Shown: positions 22,396-39,952 of the stretch, piece by piece
Position numbering within the stretch: the first letter of the stretch is position 1
How the letters are laid out: every line of letters begins with the position of its first letter
Source: a bacterium
GTDB taxonomy: Bacteria > Patescibacteriota > Minisyncoccia > Phycocordibacterales > UBA9973
Assembly (NCBI GenBank): GCA_037143195.1
Contig: JBAWZD010000002.1
Span: 3,206-67,205 of the forward strand
Length of the DNA stretch: 64,000 nucleotides
Reading direction: 5' to 3'
Translations under genes and position numbers: made by a program
Notes under the pieces: generated by a model
What the model saw: the letters and a program-made list of their open reading frames with translations, nothing else
Told to the model about the DNA's origin: nothing
Databases searched by the model: none

Positions 22396-23733
22396 CTAAT
22401 TTATTGTAGGAGAAGGTGACGCTTGCCTCGAAGTGTCGTTCGGTGGTGTGAGGTTGAACGACCAGAGTGAGTCGTCGTTCTTGTTTGTGAAGAAAAGATA
22501 CCCCTCTTTCTGGTCAATTGCGAGGTTTGTAACATCGAGATTGTTTCCTTCCCCGTCGTCGAGAAGAGTCGTTCGGCCACTTTGCGGATTTATTTTCCAA
22601 AGAGAATCATTGAAGTGCGCAAGACCCTGATACCAATCATCCGGATATGTACCCGACGGTACGTCGGTGCTTGAGCCGCAGTAGATGGCAGTGCTTGTGC
22701 TATTCCAAACGCATTTTTCAGGAAGAGTAGAAAGCCCGGTATTAAATTCGAGTCCGTCCGATAGATGTTTTACGTAAAGGACAAGCGAATTGTTTTTTGA
22801 AACACTGTAAAGGACATTCTTTCCGTCGGGACTAATCTTTGTGGTGAGCCCATTAACGTCGCCAACAATTTTGCTAAATACTCCGTTTTTTAAGACAAAG
22901 TAAGCATTTCCCGCGACGTTTGCAGATGCCTTTGTTGTTACAATCGGATTTGTTGATGACCAATCAAGAAGCCATTCTGAGAACGGGCTTGAGAATAGTT
23001 GCGCCTTGGATGATCCGTCGGCTTTCATTGTCATTCCTGCCACGCCGGAGGTTGTCGGAAGGAGGAAGAAGAAGTTTTTTGAATCAAACGAGGGTACGAT
23101 TTCAGAAATATTGTCGGGAAGAAAATCTCCTCGGGTCGTACCGCTCGTCGTTGCATCAATTGCTGGGGTTATTTGGCCAAGGAACGAAGAGATTGTTTGA
23201 TTGTCGCTTCCAGCATATCGAAGAACGACCGCTGCGCCATTGTTCCCAAATACCGCCTCGACAGTATGGGCAATGATTGTCCCCGACTGCTTGATGAGCC
23301 CTTCTTTGTTTGCATTGATATCATAAATATATCCTGTTCCCTTTTCTGCGAACCGAATGACAGGGAGAGGCGCTGGCGCAAATTTTTGAGCTCCTGTGGG
23401 GTCGTTGATGTCAACAGTAGCAACAGGTTTTGTTACTACGGGCGGAAGAACGATGAGTCCCGCAGTGAGCTTTGTTGAAAGTTGAATAAGACGAGGGGCC
23501 GGTTTTGCTTGGTCTGTGTTTGAGGGTTCAGTATTTGTGTTTCCTGTTCCTACATTTGTGCTTCCTGTAGAGGCTGGCGTTGTCGTTTTGCTTGGTCCAA
23601 ACGGAAACAACGATCCGATGGATGTTGTCGGTGACCCAGGAGTAGACGATTTACTTTGAAGCGAAAAATAGAACCAAACTCCGAGAAGGAGTAAGAGTAA
23701 TGCGATGATAACAAGAAGTGTTCGTCGAGACAT
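22396..23733 (-). CDS. membrane-anchored protein with S/T/P-rich linker and PD40/TolB-like beta-propeller region (last gene of T4SS-like cluster)
   Basis: The N-terminal TM is MSRRTLLVIIALLLLLLGVWFYFSL. A low-complexity TTPASTGSTNVGTGNTNTEPS linker follows. Beta-rich repeats include ISPDGKNVLYSVSKNNSLVLYVK. Confidence 0.5.
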   Translation of the reverse strand: MSRRTLLVIIALLLLLLGVWFYFSLQSKSSTPGSPTTSIGSLFPFGPSKTTTPASTGSTNVGTGNTNTEPSNTDQAKPAPRLIQLSTKLTAGLIVLPPVVTKPVATVDINDPTGAQKFAPAPLPVIRFAEKGTGYIYDINANKEGLIKQSGTIIAHTVEAVFGNNGAAVVLRYAGSDNQTISSFLGQITPAIDATTSGTTRGDFLPDNISEIVPSFDSKNFFFLLPTTSGVAGMTMKADGSSKAQLFSSPFSEWLLDWSSTNPIVTTKASANVAGNAYFVLKNGVFSKIVGDVNGLTTKISPDGKNVLYSVSKNNSLVLYVKHLSDGLEFNTGLSTLPEKCVWNSTSTAIYCGSSTDVPSGTYPDDWYQGLAHFNDSLWKINPQSGRTTLLDDGEGNNLDVTNLAIDQKEGYLFFTNKNDDSLWSFNLTPPNDTSRQASPSPTIN

Positions 23734-23766
23734 TCGTATCTTTATTGTACCACGGAGGAATGAGCC

Positions 23767-25611
23767 CTACCACCCGCAGTGTACGTGGTTTTCGTGTTGG
23801 CTGTTTGTTCGGTACCCCGTTACTGGACAAGCGATAAAACTATTTTGTCCTTTTCCAAGCCCATTGCAGGGACCAAATATTTGTCGAGGATTTGCTCCGG
23901 CCGCTCTGCAGATGTCCATAATTTTTTTGGCTGTTGTTGTGCTATATGAAAACGAAGCTCCTCCGATATCAAACGCGAGACCTCGGTAGTGAGCTGATCC
24001 CTTTGTGTGTTGTCCGCCTAACAGTTCTGTGACATTAACTGAGCCAACATTATTTGCAACAACAAGGAGTCCTGCGAGCATTCTTGAATCAAGACTCGCC
24101 TGTATTTGCCCGCCTTGTCTGGAGGGGCTTGTCCACGCGGCGACTCCATTCGCTGTGTCGGTTATGTTTTGGATAACACTCGATTTCGCGTCTTGTGATC
24201 CCCATGCGGGACTCAAGGTGATATTTCGATTTTGAAGAATTTGTTTTGCAAGATCTTGGGCTGACCCCGTAGGCAAGGTTACTGTCATGTTAGATGGGCT
24301 ATCACCGGGGACACTAAGGCCTGAGTCGTCGCTCTCGAGTCCTTCTTCTCCTAAATCTATTTCTGCCTGCGGAGCCGAAACAGTAATATTCACCAAGTTA
24401 GGGTTAATGGTATTGAGTATGAGATATGAAGAGAGTGCAAGCACTACTCCCCCAAGAGCACCAATGATACGAGTCTTTGCCCCCTCCTTCTCTCCAACTT
24501 GTACACTCGACATATATTCAATACCACCAACGACAACCATGAAGACAGCAAATACCATGATGAGACCCATGATGAGCTTAATCATTCCTTTGAGGTAATC
24601 ACCAACACCAGTAGAGACATTTAGCTTCCCTGTTGGATCAATCTTACCCTGAGCATCCACAATGGGAAGTGGTGCAAGCATACAGTAGGTGTTGTTCTGT
24701 CCGTCTGTGGAACAACCGTAGGCGTTTGGGCCGAAGCCGGCGGTCGTACTTGTTCCACTTGTTGAGACGCTTGGGACGGTGAAGTCTTTGAAGGAGGTAA
24801 AAAACAAATCATTAAATTTGAGAGCAAAAACATACTGTCCTCCAGGGAGGAGTCCTGTAAGTGTTATTTTAAACGAGTGGGGATTGTTTGACGCGTCGAG
24901 TGCTGCTTGGTCAGGAATCTTTGTCTGCCATGAAATCGCTTGAGCATACGTGCCAGCCGATGAAGTCTGTGACTTTACGCCACTGTACCAAACTTTCACA
25001 TCGTTCCACTGACCGTTGTTTTTTATTTGATCAAGCGCTTCTTGGTTGAGGTCCCCCGTGATTGTTACTCCGTCAGCTGTCGGTGTTGTTACAAGATTTG
25101 TGACATCGGGGCCAGATTTTCCGAGCGGAACATCCATGATGTTAAAATACTCAATGTTCGTGAGGGGCCAGCTGTCACGTGTAAGCGCGCTCTGCAAGAA
25201 AATCTCATCTCCAAAAGTGCCGTAATCGGTGAATTGGGGAATCGTACACGTAAAGTTTGGGTCTGTGTCAGAGGAACTATCTTTGACACACTTTTTTCGA
25301 TACAAGAAAACTCCGTTGATGACGCCTGTTGCATGGGTTTCAAGATATGCTTGGTTGATACTTGGGTCTGTTATGAGAACATAGGCAAGTTCGACTTGGC
25401 GTGAAAGAGGAGCAAGGGAATAATAGTCAATGAGTGCCGGACCATCCAGCTTGACGTGCATTGTTCTTGAAAGCACTCCGTCTGTGCGCGCGGTTTCAGT
25501 CTGTCCAATGAAAGCTCTTCCTCCCCCGACGGTGTCTGCTCTAGTCGTTGGTGTGTTAAATAAAAAGGCAGACAAGAAAAGTGCACTAACAATGAGAATT
25601 TTTTTGTACAT
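23767..25611 (-). CDS. secreted multidomain protein: conserved N-domain + pilin-like TM hairpin + C-terminal peptidase M15-like (D-Ala-D-Ala carboxypeptidase/LAS) domain
   Basis: The signal peptide is MYKKILIVSALFLSAFLFNTPTTRA. The TM hairpin is GMIKLIMGLIMVFAVFMVVVGGIEYMSSVQVGEKEGAKTRIIGALGGVVLALSSYLIL. The C-terminus has the M15-type zinc motifs GSAHYRGLAFDI (SxHxxGxAxD) and ENHVHCGW. It is paralogous to 26659..28539 over the N-domain and TM segment. Confidence 0.65.
   Translation of the reverse strand: MYKKILIVSALFLSAFLFNTPTTRADTVGGGRAFIGQTETARTDGVLSRTMHVKLDGPALIDYYSLAPLSRQVELAYVLITDPSINQAYLETHATGVINGVFLYRKKCVKDSSSDTDPNFTCTIPQFTDYGTFGDEIFLQSALTRDSWPLTNIEYFNIMDVPLGKSGPDVTNLVTTPTADGVTITGDLNQEALDQIKNNGQWNDVKVWYSGVKSQTSSAGTYAQAISWQTKIPDQAALDASNNPHSFKITLTGLLPGGQYVFALKFNDLFFTSFKDFTVPSVSTSGTSTTAGFGPNAYGCSTDGQNNTYCMLAPLPIVDAQGKIDPTGKLNVSTGVGDYLKGMIKLIMGLIMVFAVFMVVVGGIEYMSSVQVGEKEGAKTRIIGALGGVVLALSSYLILNTINPNLVNITVSAPQAEIDLGEEGLESDDSGLSVPGDSPSNMTVTLPTGSAQDLAKQILQNRNITLSPAWGSQDAKSSVIQNITDTANGVAAWTSPSRQGGQIQASLDSRMLAGLLVVANNVGSVNVTELLGGQHTKGSAHYRGLAFDIGGASFSYSTTTAKKIMDICRAAGANPRQIFGPCNGLGKGQNSFIACPVTGYRTNSQHENHVHCGW
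24365..24743. repeat. 379-bp direct repeat copy 1 (identical to 27266..27644)
   Basis: By eye the nucleotide sequence is identical to copy 2 at offset +2901. It encodes the 126-aa segment AGFGPNAYGCSTDGQNNTYC...NITVSAPQA shared by the two hydrolase paralogs. The shadow ORFs 24287..24598 and 27308..27499 are identical. Confidence 0.8.
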
Positions 25612-25612
25612 A

Positions 25613-26608
25613 TTACTGCAAGTGAAGCGTTAGACTCGACTGGAGTTCTTGAAAAAGTTTTGTCGTGTTCAACATTGAAACATTCACGAGGGCGTCTCCT
25701 TTGTCGGAGTTACTTCTGTGGAGAAAGAGAGTGTTTGGGTTCGCTGGTGAGTTGAGTGTGTTCCCATTCAGCGACCACGTGTATGAAATCTGGCTTGAGG
25801 TTGGGTTGCCTGGGGAAAAAAAGTATGGAAACACGACGAGCGAGACATCACTATCCTTTACGGTGTAATCATCGGTAAGAGCATGATTGTAAAGCGTTCC
25901 GTAGAGAGGGCTCCCTGCGTACCACACAAGTTTTGGGTCAGACGGATCAAGCGCAATATCATTTGAAGCAGCGACTGTCCCGTCTCGTCCTGAGATATCT
26001 AATCCGATATGTCTGGTTGGATTTACATAGTCCATCGCAGTAGAAAATACATTTTTACCAAAACCAGAGTGTGCATCGTCCGGATTGTATTCGTCGCGCC
26101 ATTCATACAAGAAACCGCTCGTCGGAATGAGCGATCCTGCACCATCAAGCACTTGTGGAATTGCAACGAACTTCACTTTTGATTCAGAGGTGACCAGTGC
26201 TTTACCTCGATAAAATGGGGGCACGACTGAATCAGTTGCTTGCCAAAGGATGTCTACAGAGGAAGGAACGACGGTAATTGTTTGAACGATAGGAAGACTG
26301 CCAACGGGCGTGATTGTTACGGTTACAACTGTTGGGCTCCCAAGTTTTTTTGTTGTGATTGTGTATTTGTTGTATCCAATCCCGCCAACAGTTTTGCCTC
26401 CATCGACAGTCCAATCAATCTCGGCTGTTTGAAGTGAGAATGAATACGTGTTTACTGTCAGTGTTACTTGTTGATTTGGCCCAGGGCTTGTTGGGAAAAG
26501 GCTGACCGAGACACTCGCGCCCCCAAGTGCCTGAGCGTTCGTGATGTTTGCAAAAGAAACGACACATAGAACGATGAGAACAAAGATGGTGCATGCTCGA
26601 CGAATCAT
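25613..26608 (-). CDS. secreted beta-rich (Ig-like) hypothetical protein
   Basis: The signal peptide is MIRRACTIFVLIVLCVVSFANITNAQA, and the composition is T/S/V-rich beta-sandwich-like. It lies between the two hydrolase paralogs. Confidence 0.5.
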   Translation of the reverse strand: MIRRACTIFVLIVLCVVSFANITNAQALGGASVSVSLFPTSPGPNQQVTLTVNTYSFSLQTAEIDWTVDGGKTVGGIGYNKYTITTKKLGSPTVVTVTITPVGSLPIVQTITVVPSSVDILWQATDSVVPPFYRGKALVTSESKVKFVAIPQVLDGAGSLIPTSGFLYEWRDEYNPDDAHSGFGKNVFSTAMDYVNPTRHIGLDISGRDGTVAASNDIALDPSDPKLVWYAGSPLYGTLYNHALTDDYTVKDSDVSLVVFPYFFSPGNPTSSQISYTWSLNGNTLNSPANPNTLFLHRSNSDKGDALVNVSMLNTTKLFQELQSSLTLHLQ

Positions 26609-26658
26609 CTTTCAATTATACGACAGGAGCGCCGAGAACAAAAGGAATTATGTACGAT

Positions 26659-28539
26659 TTAACAACCCCACCCTTCCGATGTGAGTTTGTTGTAGTTGTT
26701 GAGGACGGTGTCTACGTATCGCTTTGTTTGACGGTAGCTCCCTGGGCGCGGTGTCCAGTTTACATAACACTCCCACAGCGTCGTTCCGGGGCAACTTGCG
26801 CTCGCTTTGTTTGCTTTTGGGCCACCGTTGTATGCCGCGGCGAGGTTTTTGAGAGAAGAAGCATCACAAATATTGCTTGCCGGTGCGTTATTGCAGGCCG
26901 TTGTTTTGAGAGTTTCAACATATTTTGCTGCTGCGTCTGCTGCCACGGACGGGTTTGACCATTGTGATTGATCAGTATATCCGAGTCCTCTCCATGTTGC
27001 TGGCATCATTTGCATTAATCCGTATGCCCCTACCGAGCTTGTTGCGGTAGGATTTCCATTCGATTCTCGATACATGATTGCTTTGAGGAATGTGCACGAA
27101 ACATTGTGTTTCGTTGCTGCTGCCGCGAGCACACTATTGTAATCAGTATTGTTTGACTTCACGTCCGTCGTTCCGGTTGGAGCGGATCCGCTTCCTGCCG
27201 TTTCTGGTGGCAGCGGCTGTCCAATATCTGCTGTCGGAGTGTAGTCATCATCCATTTTTATCACCGCCTGCGGAGCCGAAACAGTAATATTCACCAAGTT
27301 AGGGTTAATGGTATTGAGTATGAGATATGAAGAGAGTGCAAGCACTACTCCCCCAAGAGCACCAATGATACGAGTCTTTGCCCCCTCCTTCTCTCCAACT
27401 TGTACACTCGACATATATTCAATACCACCAACGACAACCATGAAGACAGCAAATACCATGATGAGACCCATGATGAGCTTAATCATTCCTTTGAGGTAAT
27501 CACCAACACCAGTAGAGACATTTAGCTTCCCTGTTGGATCAATCTTACCCTGAGCATCCACAATGGGAAGTGGTGCAAGCATACAGTAGGTGTTGTTCTG
27601 TCCGTCTGTGGAACAACCGTAGGCGTTTGGGCCGAAGCCGGCGGGGGTTGTGCTGGCAGCCACATCACTTGGGATGAGGAGGTCTTTATAGGAAGTAAAA
27701 AAAATATAATCGTTTGTGTTTCCTGGTCCGTATTCAAGAGCAAAAATATATGATCCATTTGGTTTCAGGCCCGTGAGTGACACTTTGAAAGACTGAGGGT
27801 TGTTGGTTGAATCAAGGCCGGCCTGGTCAGGTATCTTGCTTTGCCAATTGACAATTTTTGCGTATGTTCCTGCTTGTGATGTTGTTTTTTCTACTTCCGA
27901 ATAAAAAAACTTAAGATCATTCCACTGACCCTCTTTTTTTAATTCGTCGAGAGCCGCCTGGTTAAAATCTCCTGAAATGGTCGCTCCTTCTGTTGTTGGT
28001 GTAACTACGAGGTTTGTAATATCTGGACCAGATTTTCCATAGGGAACATCCATAACGTTAAAGTACTCAATGTTTGTGAGTGGCCAGCTGTCCCTTGTAA
28101 GAGGTTGTTGAATGAATATCTCATCAGCGAATGTTCCATAATTACCAATTTTGAGTGTAGTGCATGTGAAGTTCGGGTCGTCTTTAGCGGAGGTGTCATG
28201 CGTGCACTCTTTTCGATATACGAAAACCCCGTTGATGATTCCAAGAGCATGTGTTGTCAAGTAATCTTGATTGATTGACGGATCAGTAACTTGCGTGTAT
28301 GCAAGTTCAACTTGCACCCCTACTGAATGGTACAGGGTAAGTGCTTCAGGGTTTAATTTAACGTGAATTGTTCGAACGAGTTCTCCGTTTGTGCGAGAAA
28401 AATCGGTGCCTTCGATCGAAGCAGCTTCTTTCCCCGTTGCGAAGTCCGCATACGCTGGCTTCGTTGGTGCGAGGAAAGCAATAAGAAAGGCAATCGCTAA
28501 AAGTGCTAGTTGGGAGAAAACTTTTTTCGTGAATCGCAT
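26659..28539 (-). CDS. secreted multidomain protein: conserved N-domain + pilin-like TM hairpin + C-terminal lytic transglycosylase (SLT, VirB1-like) domain
   Basis: The same N-domain and the identical TM segment as 23767..25611 are present. The C-terminus has the SLT motif LKAIMYRESNGNPTATSSVGAYGLMQMMPATW. Confidence 0.7.
   Translation of the reverse strand: MRFTKKVFSQLALLAIAFLIAFLAPTKPAYADFATGKEAASIEGTDFSRTNGELVRTIHVKLNPEALTLYHSVGVQVELAYTQVTDPSINQDYLTTHALGIINGVFVYRKECTHDTSAKDDPNFTCTTLKIGNYGTFADEIFIQQPLTRDSWPLTNIEYFNVMDVPYGKSGPDITNLVVTPTTEGATISGDFNQAALDELKKEGQWNDLKFFYSEVEKTTSQAGTYAKIVNWQSKIPDQAGLDSTNNPQSFKVSLTGLKPNGSYIFALEYGPGNTNDYIFFTSYKDLLIPSDVAASTTPAGFGPNAYGCSTDGQNNTYCMLAPLPIVDAQGKIDPTGKLNVSTGVGDYLKGMIKLIMGLIMVFAVFMVVVGGIEYMSSVQVGEKEGAKTRIIGALGGVVLALSSYLILNTINPNLVNITVSAPQAVIKMDDDYTPTADIGQPLPPETAGSGSAPTGTTDVKSNNTDYNSVLAAAATKHNVSCTFLKAIMYRESNGNPTATSSVGAYGLMQMMPATWRGLGYTDQSQWSNPSVAADAAAKYVETLKTTACNNAPASNICDASSLKNLAAAYNGGPKANKASASCPGTTLWECYVNWTPRPGSYRQTKRYVDTVLNNYNKLTSEGWGC
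27266..27644. repeat. 379-bp direct repeat copy 2 (identical to 24365..24743)
   Basis: See copy 1. The sequence from gcctgcggagccgaaacagtaatattcaccaagttagg to gccgaagccggcgg is identical in both copies. Confidence 0.8.
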
Positions 28540-28552
28540 GTACTAAATAGTA

Positions 28553-30397
28553 CTACCCTTTTACTGCTTGGGCTAGGTCTGAACGTGATTTTTGAAGTGC
28601 GAGAATTTGTGAAGGGTCACTCGTAATGAGCTGGTCTTCTGTGTACGAGGCAATAATTTTGATGGCAACGTGCTTAAGGCCTGCGAAGAATATGCCCTCT
28701 CCTTTGTTACATTCAAGCAAAAGATATTTTTCTTCATCGGTGAGGTTGAATGTTTTTTGGAGTGTATCAACAGTTGACGGTGACTGCTTGAGGAGGAGTT
28801 GCAGTGAGGAGTTTGTAACAATCGGCACTCCGTAGGGGCTCTTCATAAAGTCGCCCACGTCTTGAGTGATTGTTGCAAGACCAAGGAAGTATTTACGTCC
28901 ACGTTTTGCAATCGAGAAAAGGAACGAAGCAGTATCTTCGGACTTCATCATCCACCACGCCTCATCCACGACAAGCAGGCGTTTCTTGATGTTTTTGCGA
29001 ACCTCGTTCCAGATGAAGTGCGTCACGATGTACATTGCTGCTGGCTTGAGATCGTCTTCCATGTCTCGCACTGAAAAGACAACGAATTTCTTGTTGATGT
29101 CGACGTTTGATGGCTGGTTGATGAATCCTGCCCATGAACCGTGCGTATATTTTGAAAGGCGTGAGACAAGTGACTCTGTTCCTTCCATTCCGGTGAGCAC
29201 CATTTCAAAGTCAGAGAGGAGTGGTGGCTCGACTTGTGAAAAATCAGATTCAGGTGTGATGTCTTTGATAGCGTACGTTTCCATGATTGCACGGTCGATA
29301 ACAGAATCTTCTTCTGGGGTGAGTCCTCCAAGCATGATACGGAAGAGTCCAACGAGATTGATGACGTTTCCGCGGAGAATATCGTTTGCAGTCTCCCCTT
29401 CGCCTGGGAGTGGAAGATCAAACGGGTTGATGTGTGAGCCAGAGTTGAGGGAGATATTGAAATAGCGTCCACCGAGTGCTTCAGCGAGGCGTTCATATTC
29501 ACGTTCTGGATCGATAACGATGACTTCGGTATCAAACATGAGTGTTCGGATGATCTCGAGTTTTGTCGCGTATGATTTTCCGGCTCCAGATGTCGCGAAA
29601 ATGATTGAGTTGTAGTTGTCGAGACTGAAGCGGTCGAAAATAATGAGTGAAGAATTGTGGCGGTTCACTCCATAGAGGATTCCTTTGTCTGCTGTCAGGT
29701 CAAATGAGACGAATGGAAAAAAGCTCGAAAGAGGTTCCGAGTTGAGCTTTTGGTATATCTGAAGGTGGTCGTCCTCGAGCGGAAGGACACTCTTAAAGCC
29801 GTCGTCTTGCTGGAAAAGTGCGGGCTTAAAATAAATCAGCTTTGATTCGAGCATCGACTTGATTTCGTTCTCTACCTTGTAGAGTTCAGTGTCGTTGTCT
29901 GCGTATATTGTTAGATAGAGACCAACATCAAACATTTTTTCCTGTGCTTGAGTAAGGCGGTCACGCAAGTCCTCAAGGTTGCGGTTGGCCATATCGAGCT
30001 GTGGGTCACGGACAAGACCTCTCGCCTCTCGAGTCATGATCTGACTTTGTACTTCAGCAACTTTCTTTTGGAAGTCTCGAAGAATCTGCGCGGTGTCTGC
30101 TGGGTGAATCGTAATCGAAATATCAAAAACTTTGTCGAGGTTGATGACTGGAGAGAGCCAATTGTCTGTAAGCGTGGAAGGATATGAAATGACGAAATAG
30201 GTTCGAGCTGTCTTGTCTCCAAGATTGATTGCTTTCGGTTCAATCTTAAGCGCCGAGGGAGCAATGATATCTTTGAGTTCAAGAGACGCCGCTTCGTAGA
30301 TTTCTTCAGGAAGTACCGGCATAGCATTCGCTTGGATTTTTCCATCACGAGCTGTGTCAGTAGTATTCTTTTTTTTGAAAAGGCCAAAGAAATCCAT
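28553..30397 (-). CDS. virB4: type IV secretion/conjugation ATPase VirB4 (TrbE/CagE family), ATPase portion
   Basis: Walker A is IIFATSGAGKSYATKLEII. Walker B is LLVVDEAWWMM (the VirB4-typical DEAW). GLATITQDVGDF is also present. The ATG is at 30397 (MDFFGLFKKK). Confidence 0.85.
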   Translation of the reverse strand: MDFFGLFKKKNTTDTARDGKIQANAMPVLPEEIYEAASLELKDIIAPSALKIEPKAINLGDKTARTYFVISYPSTLTDNWLSPVINLDKVFDISITIHPADTAQILRDFQKKVAEVQSQIMTREARGLVRDPQLDMANRNLEDLRDRLTQAQEKMFDVGLYLTIYADNDTELYKVENEIKSMLESKLIYFKPALFQQDDGFKSVLPLEDDHLQIYQKLNSEPLSSFFPFVSFDLTADKGILYGVNRHNSSLIIFDRFSLDNYNSIIFATSGAGKSYATKLEIIRTLMFDTEVIVIDPEREYERLAEALGGRYFNISLNSGSHINPFDLPLPGEGETANDILRGNVINLVGLFRIMLGGLTPEEDSVIDRAIMETYAIKDITPESDFSQVEPPLLSDFEMVLTGMEGTESLVSRLSKYTHGSWAGFINQPSNVDINKKFVVFSVRDMEDDLKPAAMYIVTHFIWNEVRKNIKKRLLVVDEAWWMMKSEDTASFLFSIAKRGRKYFLGLATITQDVGDFMKSPYGVPIVTNSSLQLLLKQSPSTVDTLQKTFNLTDEEKYLLLECNKGEGIFFAGLKHVAIKIIASYTEDQLITSDPSQILALQKSRSDLAQAVKG

Positions 30398-30401
30398 ATG
30401 A

Positions 30402-31538: not shown

Positions 31539-32408
31539 TTAATTGAGAGGTTCTCGATACGGATCGGCGCTTGGCTTTGTGACGGGCATGGTCGCTGAAC
31601 TGTTTGGGGCGATTGGTTTAATGATTGAATAGTCTGTTACTTTTGAGGCGCTCATTGTAGGAGCCACAGCTGAAACGATTTTTGGGACAGCAGCTTCGGG
31701 GGCTTTTGCAGGTGGAATGTACGGAGTCTGTGCTATCGGAGCAGGAGGGGTTTGTTTTACTACTGTTGGTGTGTCGTGAATAACCACCCCTGTGCTCTCG
31801 AGAACAGTCTTTTCAGTTGCGGTGAGTCCTTGTTGTATTGGGGCAGCACTCGGAGGGGTAACTCGAATAGGAGCAGACACTACCACTGGCGTTGGTGCTG
31901 GTTGAGGTGGTACTGCCTGAGAAGGAGTAACTGGCGTTTGTTCGGGTACGGACACGCTATCCTTGATGTAATCAAGCGCCTCTTTTTTGTTGGTATAGAG
32001 TGATTCGATTGACGATCTGATTGGATTAAAAATCTGAGTGTTGATTTCTCGGACAATTACATCAATCTCCCCGTCATTTTTTTTGAGCTGGATTTGAACT
32101 TCATCACGAAAGTCTGCAGGCTTTGTCATCCCAAGAAGCACCATCATTGTTTCAAGTTCAATGATTCCAAGTTCGTCGTAGGTCAATTTGAGATCTTTGG
32201 CAATTGTAAAAAGTTTCATTGGATACGCATCATCCATGATCACTTTTTTTATTTCTTCGGGAAGAAGTTCATATCGAGATGCAATTTCTTTTTTTACATC
32301 GTCGAACGGGTCAGTTTCTCCGTCGCTTGGAGCTGTTTTTGCGTCCGTCATAGCCCCTGAAGTACTCGAGGAAACAACGGGAATTTTTTTCATCAAATCG
32401 TCTGCCAT
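31539..32408 (-). CDS. hypothetical protein with Pro-rich C-terminal half
   Basis: The protein is 289 aa. The C-terminal half is Pro-rich, e.g. TPVTPSQAVPPQPAPTPVVVSAPIRVTPPSAAPIQQ. No recognized domain. It lies within the T4SS-like cluster. Confidence 0.4.
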   Translation of the reverse strand: MADDLMKKIPVVSSSTSGAMTDAKTAPSDGETDPFDDVKKEIASRYELLPEEIKKVIMDDAYPMKLFTIAKDLKLTYDELGIIELETMMVLLGMTKPADFRDEVQIQLKKNDGEIDVIVREINTQIFNPIRSSIESLYTNKKEALDYIKDSVSVPEQTPVTPSQAVPPQPAPTPVVVSAPIRVTPPSAAPIQQGLTATEKTVLESTGVVIHDTPTVVKQTPPAPIAQTPYIPPAKAPEAAVPKIVSAVAPTMSASKVTDYSIIKPIAPNSSATMPVTKPSADPYREPLN

Positions 32409-32450
32409 ATAGATATAGTATAGTACGGCACGAACAAGAACGCTACTTTT

Positions 32451-35270
32451 TTAGTGGTGATCACCTGCGTGTCCACCTCCATGTCCTCCACCGTGAGCAT
32501 CGTGTCCACCTCCATGTCCTCCACCATCGCCACCACTGAGACTCTTGAGGAAATCAAGGATTCCTTTGCCTGGTGATTTGTACTTCGTATGAAATGTATG
32601 TATTTGATGGCTGAGGTCTGCAGCCACATTGATGGCTCGGCCTTCCATGCGTGCCTCAGTAAATCGTGCTGAAAACATAGGCTCTTGTTTTTGGGTTACA
32701 GGCAAGATCTTTGTGGCGTTGATGAAAACATCACGGAGTCGTTCGGTCATTCCGCCGCTAATGGCGTCAGCGATTCCCTCTCCGATACCTTTCACGACGT
32801 TGTTTTTGATATTCCTGACGAAGTTACCACCGAAAGCGCCTTTTACATCGTTGCGCCATGAACGAAGTGCGTCAGCGTTTTGCTTGCCTTGAACATTGTT
32901 GAAATCAAGGTGCCCCATTTGCGAGAGCTGACCATAATTGTCGTATGTTTGGCCATGTACCATGTATGGAGATTGGACCATTTGTTGGTGCATGAATGAC
33001 TTCGCGCGGTCTGTCTTTGCGCGCTCGAGAGCCTTTTTGAGATCGGTAAGACTCTGACTTTCTGTTCTAATTGCAGCACTTCGCACGTCCATCTCAGAGA
33101 CAGGGTCTCCGTTTGCTTTTTTCCTCTTTCCGACATCGTTACTCGTCCAAGTATTTTTACTTGTTCCAATATCGTTCTTTGTAACAGGCTTACCATTGCT
33201 CTTTAGTTTAGGAGGTTTGCCTGTGCTTGGATCACCTTCATCTCCTGGTTGCCAAGTGCCTTCGGAATCATCCCCCATGTTGTTGTCTTTTAATTTCTTT
33301 TCGAGCCTTAAAACATCAGCTCTCGCTTTTTTCCAAGCTGCCGATTTTTTGTCCGCTATTCCATTCGCGATACTGTTTGCCACTCGTAACTCGGCATTGA
33401 TTGCTTCAGCATTTTTGTCTCGAGCGGCGATGGTATTTTCAAGTTCAGTTATCTGTCCATGGTCAGCTTCAAGACTGTCGGTAAACGCGCGGAGTTTCGC
33501 TGCTTTGCGGGCGACGGCACCGTTGTATCCCCCAGCGGTATTTGCCGTCGAGAGACTACCAAAACTCTCCATGTTCATGCCAGTTGCACTCGAAAACGCA
33601 TTCCCAATGCCAGATTGACGGAAGTCGTACGAACTCGATGCGCTTTTCTGCCAGCGAGCGAGTTTGCGAGCCGACTCACGTTGGAGAGACTGAAATTCCG
33701 CGCTTTCTGCCAGCTCGGCGTAATCTAATTTTTCGAGATTCTTATATTCCGCAGAACCGGGCTTGTACTTGCTCAAAAGCACCTCTCGAGTTTTTGAATT
33801 GACGCGTCCAGCTGCGAGGTCGCGAGCTTCTTCCGTATCTCGGCTTTTGGCGTATGCGCCGAGCGTGCGACTGAGCAAGCCCGCACCCATTCCTGAGATA
33901 GCTCCGAGTGCTGTTCCTCCGAGCATTGCTGCACCTTTGAATACCATTGAGCCTATTTCTCCGGAAGCTTTCTTCACATAGGTCGTTGCTTTCAAAAGCA
34001 TCACGATGAAGAACATGAATGAGAGGAACATGATCGCAAGTGTTGCAAACGTCGCGCGATCGGAGGCTGTTGCCATGAGCGTTGAGGCTGCGAAGGAACT
34101 TCGGGTCATCAAGGCGATGAGATACAGGAAAAAGAAATAGATTGGTCCAGAGAACGCGAGTGTAAAGAGTGATTTCCACCAATCACTCCAGCCAAACCCT
34201 TCAATGTGCTGAGCTGACGGCATGATATATGATACGAATGCGAACGGCGCAAAAATAATCGCAATCCAGAGCCCGATGAGTCTTCCAAGGAAGGAGATTG
34301 CCGCAATAAAGAACGAATATGCTACAACGCAAAACATCGCTCCTGCGAGTATGAGAATACTGATGAGTACAGAATCAGGAACTTGGTTTTCTGAACCGGT
34401 CGTCGTGATGAAATATCCAAGTATTCCACCAACCGTACAGCCGATTGCGTTCCCGATGACAGGGACCACTGTTCCAGCGATGGCTCCCGTTATACAACCT
34501 GCCATCACGTGAGTGTTGTTACTCCTTGTGGGTTTTTCGAGGTTCTTCCAGAAATCCTCGTCGTTGAGCTGTTGTGGCTGGAATGCGGTTACAAGTGCGG
34601 CACTAATATCTTTTGGTGGGACTACGCCTGTTGGAATGTTGGCGGCATTTGGTGTTATCGGGCCATTCTTGTTCGTGATGGTGATTTGGTTATAGAAAAC
34701 AAGCGCGAGCGCATTCGACGTGTCGATCACCGCTTCCGTAATGAAGAAACTGAAGTTGACAATGAGCGCGATGAAGATGACAGAGGCGATCATCTTTTTT
34801 GGGTTTGCATGTCCGATTTCTATGTCGAGCACGAGAGAGAGCGCTGCCAAGAGCAACACAAGAATAAAGAAAATATTTCCGAAGTCTCGAGTAACTCTCC
34901 AGCCGTCGGCAATGAATGAAGATGAACTGTAGAGCGAACTCGAAAGCGTCAGTGAGGCAAGTGAGTCGAACGCCATCGCCGAAAACATCATCAGCCATCC
35001 ACCAACTTTGAATGGAATGAAATAGAGTACCCACTCGAGACACCCAGCAAGAGAACTATTGTCGCCGGAGGCGCCCACCCCACACTTGAAGTTTGAGGTG
35101 ATATCATATTCGTTTTTGACTGAAGGCGCTGCGCCTGCCGGCGTGTTTTGAGCGAACGCCGTTTGGGTGCTAACAGCGACTGTTCTATCTGCAGAAAGTG
35201 AAAGTGTTACCGGCAGAAAAATACCTGCACAGACGGCAACAGTAAGTATGGCGAGTACGATACGCTTCAT
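32451..35270 (-). CDS. VirB6/TrbL-like polytopic membrane protein with coiled-coil region and His/Gly-rich C-terminal tail
   Basis: A signal peptide is followed by at least 8 hydrophobic helices (residues ~70-480). The coiled-coil region includes HGQITELENTIAARDKNAEAINAELRVANS. The tail is GGDGGGHGGGHDAHGGGHGGGHAGDHH, encoded by a 24-bp tandem repeat at about 32455-32530. Confidence 0.45.
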   Translation of the reverse strand: MKRIVLAILTVAVCAGIFLPVTLSLSADRTVAVSTQTAFAQNTPAGAAPSVKNEYDITSNFKCGVGASGDNSSLAGCLEWVLYFIPFKVGGWLMMFSAMAFDSLASLTLSSSLYSSSSFIADGWRVTRDFGNIFFILVLLLAALSLVLDIEIGHANPKKMIASVIFIALIVNFSFFITEAVIDTSNALALVFYNQITITNKNGPITPNAANIPTGVVPPKDISAALVTAFQPQQLNDEDFWKNLEKPTRSNNTHVMAGCITGAIAGTVVPVIGNAIGCTVGGILGYFITTTGSENQVPDSVLISILILAGAMFCVVAYSFFIAAISFLGRLIGLWIAIIFAPFAFVSYIMPSAQHIEGFGWSDWWKSLFTLAFSGPIYFFFLYLIALMTRSSFAASTLMATASDRATFATLAIMFLSFMFFIVMLLKATTYVKKASGEIGSMVFKGAAMLGGTALGAISGMGAGLLSRTLGAYAKSRDTEEARDLAAGRVNSKTREVLLSKYKPGSAEYKNLEKLDYAELAESAEFQSLQRESARKLARWQKSASSSYDFRQSGIGNAFSSATGMNMESFGSLSTANTAGGYNGAVARKAAKLRAFTDSLEADHGQITELENTIAARDKNAEAINAELRVANSIANGIADKKSAAWKKARADVLRLEKKLKDNNMGDDSEGTWQPGDEGDPSTGKPPKLKSNGKPVTKNDIGTSKNTWTSNDVGKRKKANGDPVSEMDVRSAAIRTESQSLTDLKKALERAKTDRAKSFMHQQMVQSPYMVHGQTYDNYGQLSQMGHLDFNNVQGKQNADALRSWRNDVKGAFGGNFVRNIKNNVVKGIGEGIADAISGGMTERLRDVFINATKILPVTQKQEPMFSARFTEARMEGRAINVAADLSHQIHTFHTKYKSPGKGILDFLKSLSGGDGGGHGGGHDAHGGGHGGGHAGDHH

Positions 35271-35275
35271 ACCTA

Positions 35276-38200
35276 CTAGTATATCCCAATTATGTGCTCA
35301 AGACCTACTAATGCGTTGTTGATTGGCTGGATATTGATAGTTGAGACGTCGTGATTACGGATCAATTTGTTGTAATCCAATTTTACAGAGCCGACCGATT
35401 CGCTTGGTCCACTGAATCCTGGGGCATCAACCATCGGGCCTCCCCAGAAATTTGCGAAGAAGAAGGCTTGGTTTTTCTGGTCAGCTGGGTAATCTTGTTC
35501 ACCATCGTTCGGAAACGGATTCTTTCCAAAGAGTTTGATTCCATTGCCTTGTGCATAGTGCCAATCAGGCAAAAACGACTGTTGTGGTGGGAGTACTTTT
35601 AGTAATGCTTGAGGCAGATTTTCTATTGTCCCATCATTCGATGTGTAGAAAGAGAACGCGACACGATTTGTTGGTCCTCCGTCAGTGATGAAGCGAGGAA
35701 CAGTTCCATCCGGAGCGACGGCTGTTCGCTTGATGCAGTCTGCGAGCATTCCAGTTGCTGACTTCCTCATTCCGTCAATCGTTCCATCAGGGTCCTTTAT
35801 CGAACCGATTGCAAAATTCTTGTTGCTTATTTGGTCAAAGACGGCCTCTTCTTGTTTAAGATCATCCGGTCCATGAATATATGGTGCGATTTGTTGGAAC
35901 GAATTGCTAATTCTAAGGATTTCCGCTTCGTAGTCACTGAGACCTGATTGGCTAGATAGGCCTTTAAGGACTTGAAGGTCAGCATTGTAATCTCGAACTC
36001 CGTTCGTTTGAGTTGTAGTTGAATTGCTTTGGGTGGCGACTCCATTCACCGAAAGAATCGCGTTATTGAGCGACGTATTTATTTTTTCACTCACTGCATA
36101 GTTTGGAATAGTTGGAAGAGTGTTCCCTGCTGGGTCAAGAACCTGAACAGTACGAGTCACTTGGCTGGCTGAAATTCCGGCACTGTTTTTTACGTCATAA
36201 GTAACCGTGTATATACCCGGTGTCGTTGTGTCGACGTTTTGAATTGTGACGATACTATTTGTAATATTGCCATCTTTGTATGGGTCGTTTGCTGTTGCGC
36301 CAGGATCTACAAACTTCGTCCCCACAGCGATAGACATCGTTTGATTACCGAGGAGATTGATGGTTGGTATGAGATCAAGTTTACCGTTGACACCAGGGAA
36401 ACCTTTTTCGTTTGGAAGGTCTCGAACTCGGAGAAGGAGGTGGTAGAGTTGGGCGACTGTTGTAGCGCTCGTATCTTTGAGGACTTGGTTTTGAGACATT
36501 GAGTCTCTGTCACTTTGAATATTTGCGAACTCAGCAGTGTCGGCGGCTACTAGGTCTGGGATATCATTGTTAAAACCTTGATAACCACCATTCTCGATTT
36601 TTGCACGAGTATAACTTGATGTTGATAGGTCAGGAATGTCGGAAATTGTTTTTGGCGTCGCTCCAACGTCGTAGGTTGTTGGGGTATAAGGAACCGTTGG
36701 CTTGCTACCATCTTTTGGAAATTCGTGATCAGAAATGTCTTGCGAAATTACTGTGTCGCGGTATGTCGGAGCGTAAGTCATCAACATGGCTTTTTTGTAG
36801 CGCGAAGCAAGGGTTGTAACGATGCGCGATGAATGGTCGTGACCATTTAGGTCGGCACGGCCATCACCGTTTTGTTCAAATTCAACACCCATGATTGCAT
36901 TCATGAATGGGCCATAGATACTTTCCGCTTCGCGGTTTGTATCTGTTCCAATTGCATGGAGGATTGCTCCTACGACAAGGCCAACTACTGCTCCGATTGC
37001 TGTTCCAATCACTGGAGCTGTAGCGGTCCCCACTCCAGCTCCGAGTGCCACTGACGTAGCGACTACTCCCACAGTTAGCCCAATCACAGAACCAGCACTT
37101 TGCCCGTACGTTGTGAGGACCTTTTTGAGGTCGCTTTGGCTTGCGCTTGCAAGGAAGAGTGCGGGGTTTGCTACGAAATTTTGAGCATTTGTTTCAATTT
37201 CATTTTGCCAGCCTGGGTGTGGTCCTGGAATACAGTAATCAAGACTGTATATATTGGTAATAAGGCTGTGTTGAGCAGCGATTTCTTTTGCAAGAATTTG
37301 CTGGTATCCCTCTGGCAATGAGAGGTCGCCAACGCAAGGGTCTCCCGCGTTGTTGTATTCTTGGTCTGGTGTCGTACATCCAGGCACTGAAGATGAAGTG
37401 TCGGTTTGATTGTATTCGTAGCGAATAACTGAGGGGATATCTGTAAATACATTGAAGTTCGTGCCTGCATTCGCCCATGTTCCATTCGCTGTTACGCCAT
37501 TGTTTACGGTGACTGATGTTGTGATCGGGACACCAGGATTATTCTTTGTGAAATTACTATTTGATTGCGCGTTTGTTGAGTTTGAAAGTGATGAAAGTCC
37601 TTTGTTGATAAGTTGATTGGCGAGTGCGTTAAAAATCGCCGTTATATCAGTGCTCAAATCTTGGCCATTGATAAGCTGGTTTGAAGGGATGTTGATGGTT
37701 TGAGTTAGAGCATTTGCTACAACACTACCTGGTGTCTGAACTTTCCACTGATTACAAACCTTGCTAGCATTTACCGCTGCGTAAGCGTTATCGGCTGCGA
37801 GCAGGGCTGCGCTTGCAGCAGCACTCTGGTTGTCAGCAATATCAAGTGCTGCCTGAGCGCTTTTGATTGCCGCAGCATCTCCCGACTTTTGTGCGGCTGC
37901 GAGTGCGTCTGCTGCGAGTGCGTCTGCTTTGTTTGCTGCATCTGCTGCATCTGCTGCCGCTGCATCTGCCGCTTTGCTACTATCTGTGTCAGCGTCTGGG
38001 TTATATTTTGGATCGACACATGTTTTTATATCAAGAAAGCCCCCTGAGCGTTGCAAGGTATCTTTGATATCTTGCATTGGTGAGTAGGCTGTTTGAGCTA
38101 GACGCTTGGTTATCTCTTGAGTTGCACTCATACGGAATCCGAGCGGGTCGTTTCCGATATCAAACTGAGAGTTGAATGCAGACCATCCCCCATTCGTGAA

Positions 38201-38977
38201 ATTTACTGCAAAATCTTTGTCTGTTAGACCTGGGTATCTTTGAGCAATAACGGCGTTTAAGCTGTACTTTGAGCTTTTTTCAAACCCAGTTTGAAGTTCT
38301 TTTGCGAGGTGTAATACGAAATCTCGTCCAAACGGGTAATTTTTGTTATCAAAGGCAAATGTTGCATTGAAGTCTCTCAAAGCTTTGTCGCCAAGATTTT
38401 TAAGAATTGCCCCAGTGTTTGTACTATAGAGAGGACTTCCATTGAATCCATGGTTAATCCAGTTTACTGTTGCGAGTGTCAGTTGACGAAGAATAACCCC
38501 TGCCGCAGCCTTTTCCATTGCGTTTGTACAGGTTGTTTTCGTTACCTGCGCCTCAGTGTTTGTGGCAATATTTTGAAGCGCCTGGTTTGTTTTATCTGTA
38601 GAACTAAGATGAACGAGTTGGTCAGCCGGTGCTCCACTACCACCTGCTTCTTTCGCTGCAGCCGCTGCCGCAGTAGCGGCTGCTTGTTTTGCTGTATCTT
38701 CTGCTGCTGGTACAAGCAAATTTCGGATTCCGTTTTGAATTTTTGTTTTGTTACAGGCAATGGCTGCGGCTGCAACTGCCCCGACTGAGTCTTGAACGAT
38801 ACTTCCGAGCGATATTCCCGCTTGGCCTGTCGTTAATGTGCTACTCGAGGTCGAAACATTTCCACCTGCCGTGACCGTCGGAGCTGCAAAAACACTCGCA
38901 GGGATTGCCGCGCATGTTATTGCGAATATGAGTAAAATAGTTACAAACTTTCGAACGTCGAGCGCCGTAGATGTCAT
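35276..38977 (-). CDS. giant (1234 aa) surface protein: signal peptide, Ala-rich repeat region, glycine-zipper TM hairpin, Ig-like (DUF5011-type) domain
   Basis: The signal peptide is MTSTALDVRKFVTILLIFAITCAAIPASVFA. The Ala-rich repeat is AAAADAADAANKADALAADALAAAQKSGDAAAIKSAQAALDIA. The TM hairpin is LTVGVVATSVALGAGVGTATAPVIGTAIGAVVGLVVGAILHAIG. The Ig-like region is TPGIYTVTYDVKNSAGISASQVTRTVQV. Confidence 0.6.
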   Translation of the reverse strand: MTSTALDVRKFVTILLIFAITCAAIPASVFAAPTVTAGGNVSTSSSTLTTGQAGISLGSIVQDSVGAVAAAAIACNKTKIQNGIRNLLVPAAEDTAKQAAATAAAAAAKEAGGSGAPADQLVHLSSTDKTNQALQNIATNTEAQVTKTTCTNAMEKAAAGVILRQLTLATVNWINHGFNGSPLYSTNTGAILKNLGDKALRDFNATFAFDNKNYPFGRDFVLHLAKELQTGFEKSSKYSLNAVIAQRYPGLTDKDFAVNFTNGGWSAFNSQFDIGNDPLGFRMSATQEITKRLAQTAYSPMQDIKDTLQRSGGFLDIKTCVDPKYNPDADTDSSKAADAAAADAADAANKADALAADALAAAQKSGDAAAIKSAQAALDIADNQSAAASAALLAADNAYAAVNASKVCNQWKVQTPGSVVANALTQTINIPSNQLINGQDLSTDITAIFNALANQLINKGLSSLSNSTNAQSNSNFTKNNPGVPITTSVTVNNGVTANGTWANAGTNFNVFTDIPSVIRYEYNQTDTSSSVPGCTTPDQEYNNAGDPCVGDLSLPEGYQQILAKEIAAQHSLITNIYSLDYCIPGPHPGWQNEIETNAQNFVANPALFLASASQSDLKKVLTTYGQSAGSVIGLTVGVVATSVALGAGVGTATAPVIGTAIGAVVGLVVGAILHAIGTDTNREAESIYGPFMNAIMGVEFEQNGDGRADLNGHDHSSRIVTTLASRYKKAMLMTYAPTYRDTVISQDISDHEFPKDGSKPTVPYTPTTYDVGATPKTISDIPDLSTSSYTRAKIENGGYQGFNNDIPDLVAADTAEFANIQSDRDSMSQNQVLKDTSATTVAQLYHLLLRVRDLPNEKGFPGVNGKLDLIPTINLLGNQTMSIAVGTKFVDPGATANDPYKDGNITNSIVTIQNVDTTTPGIYTVTYDVKNSAGISASQVTRTVQVLDPAGNTLPTIPNYAVSEKINTSLNNAILSVNGVATQSNSTTTQTNGVRDYNADLQVLKGLSSQSGLSDYEAEILRISNSFQQIAPYIHGPDDLKQEEAVFDQISNKNFAIGSIKDPDGTIDGMRKSATGMLADCIKRTAVAPDGTVPRFITDGGPTNRVAFSFYTSNDGTIENLPQALLKVLPPQQSFLPDWHYAQGNGIKLFGKNPFPNDGEQDYPADQKNQAFFFANFWGGPMVDAPGFSGPSESVGSVKLDYNKLIRNHDVSTINIQPINNALVGLEHIIGIY

Positions 38978-39046
38978 CAAAGACTAGTATACTCCGGAGC
39001 CCTTGTTTATAAAAGCTTTCTGTGGAAACGTGGCGATGTTTTTTGC

Positions 39047-39952
39047 TTAGTTTGCGAAATAACTCGAAATTGTTGCCGTTGCTCTGTCAGCTTCGTCGCT
39101 TGCTTTTACGTAATCGTCGAGCGAGACCATTCCGTGGATCGTGTCAGTGTAGAGGTTTTCAATGTGGATAAGCGTTTGTCCCATTTCAGCGGTTGAGTTT
39201 GCAAGGGCGAGAGCACTTTGAGAAATCTCAATTGGTGTTTTGAGGGCAACCATTTTTTTAGCAAGGCTAATATATGCTTCAGCAATCGGCTGAAGCAATT
39301 TGAGTGAGCCTGAATTGTTTTGGTTGAGCGAGTCTGAAATGATATTGAGTTCTGAGCCTAAATCAACGTTGTTGTATTCCGAGATTAGATTTTTTAGGGC
39401 GTTTTGATATGCGGTTTTTTCTTTCTGGGTACCCGTGCTTACAACCGTAAGATCGCTCATCGAATACGTGACCGGATTTGCATGCTTATTGTCGACATCG
39501 TTTCCGATTGTCTGGGCGACTTTCGTGAGCGCGTCCGGAGTTAGGTTTCCTGATTGGCGAAGCGCGAGCACTGTGGACATAAATTCACGAGTAAATATAT
39601 CTGTCGGAGTTGGCAAATTGCTGTCGTCTGTCTTTATAGCATTTTGGGCCTTTTTTGATTCAATAATTTTCTTATTGGCCGCTCCGTCTCCTTTTGGGTC
39701 AAGTCCCCAGAGAGATTCCTCCCAGTCGGGGATCCCGTTATTGTTTGAATCTTGCGAAATCGCTTGATTGAGTGTTCCTGAATAACTCACAAGATTGAAT
39801 TCACCCGGATTTTTGTTAAAAGATGATTTTGAACCAAAATAACTTGTTGCTATAAAAATTGCCAGAATAACAACGATACAAGTCCCAATGATGATTGAAA
39901 ATTTTTTGCTGGGAAGATATTTGCCCCATTCGAGAACCTTTTCGAGTTGCAT
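39047..39952 (-). CDS. N-terminally membrane-anchored extracellular protein (hypothetical; first gene of cluster)
   Basis: The TM helix is FSIIIGTCIVVILAIFIATSYF. A Ca-binding-like DWEESLWGLDPKGDG segment follows. No family assignment. Confidence 0.45.
   Translation of the reverse strand: MQLEKVLEWGKYLPSKKFSIIIGTCIVVILAIFIATSYFGSKSSFNKNPGEFNLVSYSGTLNQAISQDSNNNGIPDWEESLWGLDPKGDGAANKKIIESKKAQNAIKTDDSNLPTPTDIFTREFMSTVLALRQSGNLTPDALTKVAQTIGNDVDNKHANPVTYSMSDLTVVSTGTQKEKTAYQNALKNLISEYNNVDLGSELNIISDSLNQNNSGSLKLLQPIAEAYISLAKKMVALKTPIEISQSALALANSTAEMGQTLIHIENLYTDTIHGMVSLDDYVKASDEADRATATISSYFAN

Follow-up and report, generated by a model that had tools for sequence, protein, structure and literature searches.

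A probable Patescibacteria type IV secretion locus beside dnaA, with VirB2-like pilin modules fused to an SLT domain and a probable M15-like domain

We analyzed a 64,000-nucleotide (nt) stretch of a Patescibacteriota contig (GenBank assembly GCA_037143195.1, contig JBAWZD010000002.1, positions 3,206 to 67,205 of the forward strand), referred to below as the window, whose positions all coordinates follow. Within it, the interval 22396-39952 had been described, in an earlier sequence-only reading made without database searches, as a VirB4-centered cluster of eleven co-directional genes resembling a secretion or conjugation system. Mapping of the open reading frames (ORFs) of the window placed exactly eleven ORFs in this interval, all on the minus strand and separated by gaps of 1 to 66 nt, so that both the count and the coordinates proved right. 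Table 1 lists these genes, numbered g1 to g11 in cluster order, together with three DNA features. For comparison, a VirB4 scan of a genome collection returned at least 593 matching contigs, the best 80 of which were used as related loci (L001 to L080); VirB4 identity among these best 80 matches was 72 to 88%, and their titles are nearly all those of Patescibacteria/Paceibacteria metagenome-assembled genomes. Forty of the related Paceibacteria loci are full length, with complete 10-kb flanks.

Table 1. Genes and DNA features of the cluster, in window coordinates (aa, amino acids)
Feature	Coordinates	Strand	Length	Characteristics
g1, bitopic membrane protein	39047..39952	-	301 aa	one N-terminal transmembrane segment, aa 18-36
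g2, secreted/surface protein	35276..38980	-	1234 aa	signal peptide, Ala-rich region, Bact_surface_Ig-like domain
g3, polytopic membrane protein, VirB6-like candidate	32451..35270	-	939 aa	candidate from topology, gene position, and weak fold match
g4, soluble Pro-rich protein	31539..32408	-	289 aa	12% Pro, no transmembrane segment
g5, PrgI family protein (VirB3 equivalent)	31110..31517	-	135 aa	Pfam PF12666, 1.1e-11, 45.5 bits (cut-off 27)
g6, TrsD/TraD-family protein, homolog of the VirB4 N-terminal part	30402..31067	-	221 aa	NCBIfam NF041427, 3.2e-7
g7, VirB4 ATPase, monoderm (FATA) type	28553..30397	-	643 aa (614 aa from the likely ATG)	coordinates counted from ATG 30397; mechanical ORF reaches TTG 30484
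g8, pilin-SLT fusion	26659..28539	-	626 aa	signal peptide, beta-sandwich N-ectodomain, VirB2-like hairpin aa 355-409, SLT aa 472-578
g9, secreted protein	25613..26608	-	331 aa	signal peptide; directly after virB4 in 40/40 related loci
g10, pilin-LAS/M15-like fusion	23767..25611	-	614 aa	signal peptide, tandem FN3-like N-ectodomain, VirB2-like hairpin aa 346-400, C-terminal zinc peptidase-like domain
g11, membrane-anchored or secreted protein	22396..23733	-	445 aa	homologs with PD40 repeats
Pilin-module DNA, g8	27259..27644	-	386 nt	block in common with g10
Pilin-module DNA, g10	24358..24743	-	386 nt	second copy of the block
Perfect hairpin followed by T-runs	22353..22396		20 bp	between the convergent 3' ends of g11 and a jag/khpB-like gene

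Three adjacent genes, g5 to g7, have recognizable counterparts in monoderm type IV secretion systems (T4SSs). The identity of g7 as the VirB4 ATPase is borne out by a match to the CD1110 family of NCBIfam (E value 1e-114; 384 bits, cut-off 325), by similarity to Thermoanaerobacter VirB4 (PDB 4ag5; 1e-40), and by Walker motifs A (GAGKS) and B (VVDEAW), both intact. The PrgI/VirB3-like nature of g5 was likewise upheld, its Pfam match lying above the curated cut-off, and orthologs of g5 at 45% identity occur in all 40 full-length loci. The 221-aa protein g6 had been read as the N-terminal domain of VirB4 split off in an unusual way. The homology holds: g6 matches the TrsD/TraD family and aligns with the N-terminal stretch of several VirB4 profiles, g7 aligns with the remainder only, and on the Mbov_0397 VirB4 profile the two cover positions 102-232 and 285-893, respectively. 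Because they match complementary parts of the profiles, g6 and g7 together tile a full-length VirB4. The unusual character of the split, however, does not hold, g6 being an ordinary TrsD/TraD gene; its equivalent is a separate ORF upstream of virB4 in 76 of the 80 related loci and measures 212 to 238 aa in the 30 loci with listed lengths. Judged from the sequence, virB4 most likely starts at the ATG at 30397. Because this ATG comes 4 nt past the stop codon of the TrsD gene, the apparent overlap of the g6 and g7 ORFs is not a frameshift; a frameshifted or pseudogenized VirB4 was rejected on this ground and on the retention of the split in 76 related loci.

Downstream of virB4, g8 and g10 encode paralogous proteins in which a pilin-like module is joined to a cell wall enzyme domain or a candidate for one. 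Such fused pilin-hydrolase proteins were the most original part of the sequence-only reading, and they are real. The first 445 aa of the two proteins are 67% identical, in keeping with the paralogy claimed for them. In g8, the SLT lytic transglycosylase domain scores 1.3e-18 against PF01464 and retains the catalytic Glu of the E-S motif within YRESNG. The hairpins of g8 and g10 themselves reach 21 to 22 bits against the T4SS_pilin family PF18895, under its cut-off of 26.6; the same family was found in three sets of related proteins (33/38, 86/105, and 60/75), and PF04956 (TrbC/VirB2) was found in a few. Thus, the pilin-like transmembrane hairpin proposed for both hydrolases is clear in their homologs. 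A pilin-module hidden Markov model (HMM) scored 121 bits on both proteins and, across all six frames of the window, matched g8 and g10 only, so that no free-standing pilin gene was detected there. An exhaustive search returned 10,434 representative relatives, mostly through the pilin module.

The putative enzymatic head of g10, for which an M15 domain had been proposed, is less easily classified. As a single sequence, its C-terminal domain has no Pfam match even at an E value of 10 and no match among PDB sequences. On the other hand, the zinc-site signature of LAS/M15 enzymes, S-x-H-x2-G-x3-D followed by H-x-H, is present, with S539, H541, G544, D548, H609, and H611 at least 90% conserved over 38 homologs, among which Peptidase_M15_4 was recognized in 3/38 and M15_3 in 2/38. 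A family profile of the domain hit the LAS-fold Sonic hedgehog N-domain across the zinc motif (7e-4) and, weakly, 1lbu (a zinc D-Ala-D-Ala carboxypeptidase; 0.26) and 8q2g (0.44). In an AlphaFold2 (AF2) model of g10, the predicted local distance difference test (pLDDT) score exceeds 90 in the C-terminal domain; when the whole model was used for fold searches, all matches were of the tandem FN3/cytokine-receptor-like kind and fell on the N-terminal ectodomain. With the zinc site present and the Pfam match missing, we regard an M15-like peptidase as probable, not proven.

At the DNA level, the pilin modules of g8 and g10 are almost the same sequence. The two copies of the 386-nt block differ by at most 3 mismatches, contain an exact run of 379 nt, and are confined to the pilin module; around them, identity between g8 and g10 falls to about 60% in the 5' flanks, and the 3' parts show no relationship. 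An assembly artifact was considered for the 379-nt exact repeat and rejected, as a second, independently assembled relative shows its own within-genome core identity: its two paralogs (P0081 and P0087) have near-identical cores (133/138) that are unlike the core in the window. Taken with this second genome, the 379-nt identity points to gene conversion and concerted evolution of the pilin cores. Because the cores appear to evolve in concert, the two enzyme carriers may need to have one and the same core, as co-assembly, for instance, might require.

The fusions were next set against a collection of 75 pilin-module ORFs, comprising the two in the window and 73 from 69 related loci, most of which occupy the slot after virB4. 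At least 51 cell wall enzyme matches were found among the 75, including NlpC/P60 (16), VanY (10), SLT-type (7), YkuD (5), Amidase_5 (4), M15_4 (3), and others; Amidase_2 and 3D heads occur as further fusions in related Paceibacteria loci. The beta-sandwich N-terminal domains of related fusions are similarly variable (TIG, Big_1, Filamin). The positional ortholog in one related locus (L004:12851-14506) joins a pilin to VanY and aligns with the window family in the pilin core only. Because only this core aligns between fusions, their architecture can be described as a signal peptide, a variable beta-sandwich ectodomain, a conserved pilin hairpin, and a swappable enzyme head. Most related loci have a single pilin fusion, located after g9, relative to which g8 is an extra copy. 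A pilin fusion with head swapping and core homogenization is apparently absent from published accounts of Patescibacteria T4SSs.

Conservation of the block in related genomes, a check proposed with the sequence-only reading, extends to most of the cluster and its surroundings. Genes g3, g5, g6, g7, g9, and g11 and a pilin fusion were each found in 40/40 full-length loci, yidC was found in 38/40 and dnaA in 37/40, the housekeeping neighbors of the window recurred in up to 40/40, and the gene order was identical in the nine loci mapped in detail. In the window, the cluster is bordered by housekeeping genes, with ksgA (18 nt upstream) and pcrA on one side and jag, yidC, dnaA (2.2 kb past the last cluster gene), and dnaN on the other, and its GC content equals that of the surroundings, uniform at 0.44 to 0.48. 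Because content, order, and housekeeping flanks are conserved, the cluster is best described as a vertically inherited chromosomal locus, not a mobile element.

Pfam searches of the window ORFs of at least 120 aa, with the 157-aa ORF at 12470-12943 left out, identified no type IV coupling protein (T4CP) or relaxase domain, in line with the absence of VirD4 and relaxase already remarked upon. Nor were VirD4 and a relaxase found just beyond the cluster among the scanned ORFs of the 64-kb window, an arrangement that, with hallmarks of an ordinary integrative and conjugative element (ICE), had been named as refuting the sequence-only reading; the flanks are housekeeping genes. The only other secretion ATPase found in the window is a PilB-type T2SSE protein at 8527-10245, and the closest tyrosine recombinase lies at a distance of 14 kb. 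Since no gap between cluster genes exceeds 66 nt, there is no room for an oriT in the cluster. An ordinary ICE was rejected on the housekeeping flanks, the synteny, and the uniform composition. With no coupling protein or relaxase nearby, we agree with the earlier assessment that conjugation by this T4SS is unlikely.

The remaining cluster genes encode surface, membrane, or soluble proteins of less certain affiliation. The polytopic protein g3 has a signal peptide, about 7 transmembrane segments (aa 74-435), a coiled-coil hydrophilic C-terminal half, and the Gly/His tail described earlier; this tail, at 32451-32530 (GGDGGGHGGGHDAHGGGHGGGHAGDHH), may bind metal, and a G/H-rich C terminus is conserved across the homologs. 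The surface character of the 1234-aa protein g2 was confirmed by its signal peptide and by a Bact_surface_Ig-like domain (PF16403, aa 874-947, 2.4e-20). Homologs of g2 are present in 33/40 loci at about 27% identity and with highly variable lengths of 356 to 1094 aa. A Gly/Ala/Val-rich double hydrophobic segment at aa 632-674 of g2 resembles a Gly-zipper hairpin; it would divide the protein into two ectodomains, in the same N-domain/hairpin/C-domain layout as the pilin fusions, and did not match the pilin HMM.

The membrane-anchored protein g1 has no match in Pfam, NCBIfam, or PDB sequences, including a search of its family profile against the PDB, and has orthologs at the equivalent position in 28/40 full-length loci. 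Just outside its membrane anchor, at aa 68-85, lies a near-invariant motif, D-x7-DWEE-x-LWG-x-DP (DWEExLWGxDP), with a possible resemblance to calcium-binding repeats. The Pro-rich protein g4, recognized as such from the start, has no family match in Pfam or NCBIfam; its sequence is of low complexity and divergent, and it is detectable in 14/40 loci. No family match in Pfam or NCBIfam was obtained for g9 either. The beta-propeller announced for g11 finds support in its homologs, which carry PD40 propeller repeats and in some cases PG_binding_1. The protein itself has no direct Pfam match, its family profile matched nothing among PDB sequences, and it is probably a PD40/TolB-like beta-propeller.

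On its 3' side, the cluster is likely closed by the 20-bp hairpin, which has the features of a bidirectional terminator. The convergent jag/khpB-like gene (21886-22356, plus strand) is 45% identical to its L004 ortholog; a 182-aa minus-strand ORF at 21832-22380, considered as a twelfth cluster gene, was rejected as the antisense shadow of this gene. On the 5' side, the same-direction string runs on, at spacings of 18 to 32 nt, through ksgA, pcrA (a PcrA/UvrD helicase), and a 940-aa ORF, so that the operon may extend upstream of g1. A scan for sigma-70-like promoters found sites to be rarer than in shuffled sequence and was uninformative. The 940-aa protein (42798-45620, minus strand; gap of 29 nt), co-directional with pcrA, ksgA, and the cluster, is Glu/Lys/Thr-rich, with no transmembrane segment and no family match. 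Other envelope proteins are encoded near the cluster, namely, a 992-aa DUF11 surface protein (4548-7526, minus strand) and a cell wall hydrolase with LysM and Peptidase_M23 domains (45956-47137, plus strand). The PilB-type ATPase mentioned above (plus strand; E value 5e-113) belongs to a type IV pilus system and is encoded on the dnaA side, 12 kb past the cluster. Besides the T4SS, type IV pili are the envelope machine known to be required for epibiotic growth in Saccharibacteria.

Altogether, on the observed gene content, homologies, and synteny and with no relaxase or T4CP nearby, we consider it highly probable that the cluster is a chromosomal, vertically inherited Patescibacteria T4SS located by the replication origin of a Paceibacteria (Parcubacteria/Nomurabacteria-like) genome and that it moves macromolecules at host contact and does not serve conjugation. 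The suggestion that it might represent an undescribed T4SS subtype fails, as the system corresponds to a described type, the Patescibacteria clade related to the MPF-FATA systems (MPF, mating-pair formation) (PMC10633639, PMC12102498, PMC12857230). The functional side of the sequence-only reading, a monoderm T4SS with VirB1, VirB3, and VirB4 equivalents, a VirB6-like candidate, and surface proteins in an ultra-small probable episymbiont, coincides with the literature.

As to assembly, direction of transport, and substrate, we infer the following by analogy. VirB4 and the separately encoded TrsD would dock on the membrane through PrgI/VirB3 and the large VirB6-like protein to form a cytoplasmic-membrane translocon. 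The VirB2-like hairpins of g8 and g10 would insert in or anchor to the membrane, or polymerize, and present externally both a tandem FN3-like domain and a head that cleaves peptidoglycan, a lytic transglycosylase in one case and a LAS/M15-like peptidase in the other. These heads could open a cell wall, whether that of the bacterium itself or that of its host, while the large Ig-domain and propeller proteins would complete the surface part, and the machine would then move macromolecules across the envelope where the cells touch. It might import host macromolecules or export effectors. In cultured Paceibacteria parasitic on methanogens, T4SS-pilin proteins rank with the most highly expressed genes of unknown function (PMC10936435), which supports the view that such proteins are deployed in host contact.

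Several points weigh against this reading. No VirB8-like (NTF2) protein was recognized in the cluster. With about 300 aa attached to one end and about 200 aa to the other, the pilins of g8 and g10 may be unable to form a fiber of the VirB2 type. The VirB6/TrbL assignment proposed for g3 was not supported by profile searches, an outcome that the sequence-only reading had itself listed as counting against it: g3 has no such match in Pfam or NCBIfam, TrbL was recognized by Pfam in 1/39 of its homologs (E value 0.027), its family profile matched nothing among PDB sequences, and a tblastn search of 72,556 plasmids found no homolog. An AF2 model of g3 (mean pLDDT 74.6) gave as its best PDB fold matches three chains of the R388 T4SS, 8rtd_L, 7o3v_J, and 7o3v_G, at a weak level (E value 0.23, probability 0.85, TM-score 0.38); we take these chains to be TrwI/VirB6. 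Nevertheless, g3 lies directly upstream of the PrgI gene, as does the VirB6-like gene in Southlakia, and given this position and its presence in 40/40 loci, a VirB6 equivalent is a reasonable, unproven assignment.

Other explanations of the locus differ in what the machine would do. All core parts derive from monoderm conjugation machinery, and VirD4-like genes are common in Patescibacteria genomes, usually distant from virB4; the cluster might accordingly belong to a functional conjugation system, an ICE or a chromosomal transfer apparatus, with T4CP and relaxase elsewhere in the genome. Yet the scanned ORFs of the 64-kb window include no relaxase, T4CP, or adjacent integrase, the GC content is uniform, and flanks and order next to dnaA are conserved over 40 genomes in the pattern of a vertically inherited core locus. 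Moreover, a published Patescibacteria data set holds only 109 relaxases, just 15 of them near virB4 (PMC12102498), and in Southlakia the T4CP is nonessential whereas the T4SS is essential. We consider this explanation very improbable. A T4SS with VirB4 and, in the scanned window ORFs, no T4CP or relaxase nearby would also suit a machine for importing DNA or nucleotides, on the model of Helicobacter ComB or archaeal Ced, that takes up host DNA without either protein. Like Patescibacteria in general, the organism presumably lacks nucleotide synthesis. CedB and CedD profiles do match the P-loop region of VirB4, but far below their cut-offs and over the shared ATPase core only, and ComB/VirB7, VirB9, and VirB10 parts are not present. 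Import of DNA or other macromolecules has been proposed (PMC12102498); in Southlakia, however, loss of comEC abolishes competence and leaves viability unaffected while the T4SS is essential, and because comEC is dispensable in this way, the essential role of the T4SS is not ComEC-linked DNA uptake. The direction of transport cannot be read from sequence, and a dedicated import machine seems to us unlikely.

It is also conceivable that VirB4 drives the assembly of a surface organelle instead of a channel, inserting and displaying pilin-anchored wall enzymes and adhesins that would attach to the host wall and open it. None of the pilin modules in the window stands free, each being fused to an ectodomain and a cell wall enzyme; peptidoglycan-enzyme domains recur at least 51 times in the set of 75 pilin proteins; within a genome, the pilin cores stay identical; and the neighboring propeller family sometimes has a peptidoglycan-binding domain. 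Against this, the VirB3/VirB4/VirB6-type translocon, a channel in all studied T4SSs, is fully retained, and VirB1-type hydrolases normally just make room in the cell's own wall, which leaves such an organelle rather improbable. A bolder reading may be put forward as a speculation that we ourselves hold doubtful. Instead of a plain fiber subunit, the Paceibacteria pilin would be a carrier module between an FN3-like binding domain and an interchangeable head (SLT, NlpC/P60, VanY/M15, YkuD, or amidase). Several such proteins, whose cores gene conversion keeps identical, would assemble together on the T4SS and display enzymes, in a set specific to the host, that breach its cell wall; the result would be a wall-piercing T4SS with a host range set by head swapping.

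As a T4SS locus, the cluster only adds a further Paceibacteria case to a system on record for thousands of Patescibacteria genomes. What gives it value is the physical fusion of VirB2-like and VirB1-like functions in a large, almost uncultured class, with the enzyme head swapped between species and the pilin core homogenized within the genome. Should host walls be the target of these enzymes, the enzymes would rank as the first concrete candidates for the means by which these episymbionts open their hosts, and as candidates for determinants of host specificity.

Compared with known systems, the cluster, with no coupling protein nearby and probably not conjugative, is akin to Bordetella Ptl, Brucella VirB, and Helicobacter ComB, which function without a dedicated coupling protein and are not conjugative; those systems, however, are diderm, are built on a VirB7/9/10 core, and have parts that are not specifically related to the ones described here. 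Diderm VirB2/TrbC pilins likewise present a two-helix hydrophobic hairpin after a secretion signal, and some homologs of the window proteins match PF04956, but the canonical pilin is about 70 to 120 aa long and often trimmed or cyclized, whereas in the window the hairpin lies inside 600-aa proteins, as a module flanked by folded domains at either end. The locus also resembles the conjugative MPF-FATA systems of the Gram-positive plasmids pGO1/pSK41 (Trs) and pIP501 (Tra), which have a separate TrsD/TraD gene directly upstream of the VirB4 gene (TrsE/TraE), a PrgI/TrsC-type VirB3, VirB1-type transglycosylase and peptidase activities, and no outer-membrane core. Unlike the present locus, these plasmid systems are mobile, with relaxase, T4CP, and oriT, are devoid of a VirB2-like pilin, and combine both hydrolase activities in a single VirB1-like protein without a pilin hairpin.

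The nearest counterparts are the systems of other Patescibacteria, which a 2025 review treats as a recognized newcomer to the T4SS superfamily (PMC12857230). In Southlakia epibionticum, most genes of SEML1_0006-0019 were found by transposon sequencing to be essential for epibiotic growth, and the locus was described as resembling Gram-positive conjugative systems, with pilins and without recognizable coupling or relaxase proteins (Wang et al. 2023; PMC10633639). The order in this Saccharibacteria locus, namely, VirB6-like protein, PrgI, a 293-aa protein, TraC/VirB4-like ATPase, and lysozyme (PMC10633639), is the order around virB4 in the window as well, with g3 as the VirB6-like candidate. Southlakia differs in its NTF2/VirB8-like gene, not recognized in the window cluster, and in its six small free-standing pilin genes and separate lysozyme, in place of which the window has both pilin modules inserted between an FN3-like ectodomain and a hydrolase. 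A phylum-wide survey (Quinonero-Coronel et al. 2025; PMC12102498) found VirB4, TrsD, PrgI/VirB3, VirB6, and PF18895 pilins to be widespread, with TrsD as the most abundant T4SS component in Patescibacteria, relaxases near-absent, T4CP genes mostly distant, VirB1 homologs associated with virB4 mainly in Paceibacteria, and the locus often near dnaA, dnaN, and ksgA, notably in Paceibacteria. The cluster shares with this clade VirB4 with TrsD, PrgI/VirB3, PF18895-type pilins, hydrolases, the lack of a relaxase or T4CP nearby, and a chromosomal place by dnaA, dnaN, and ksgA, and it has a candidate for the large VirB6-like protein.

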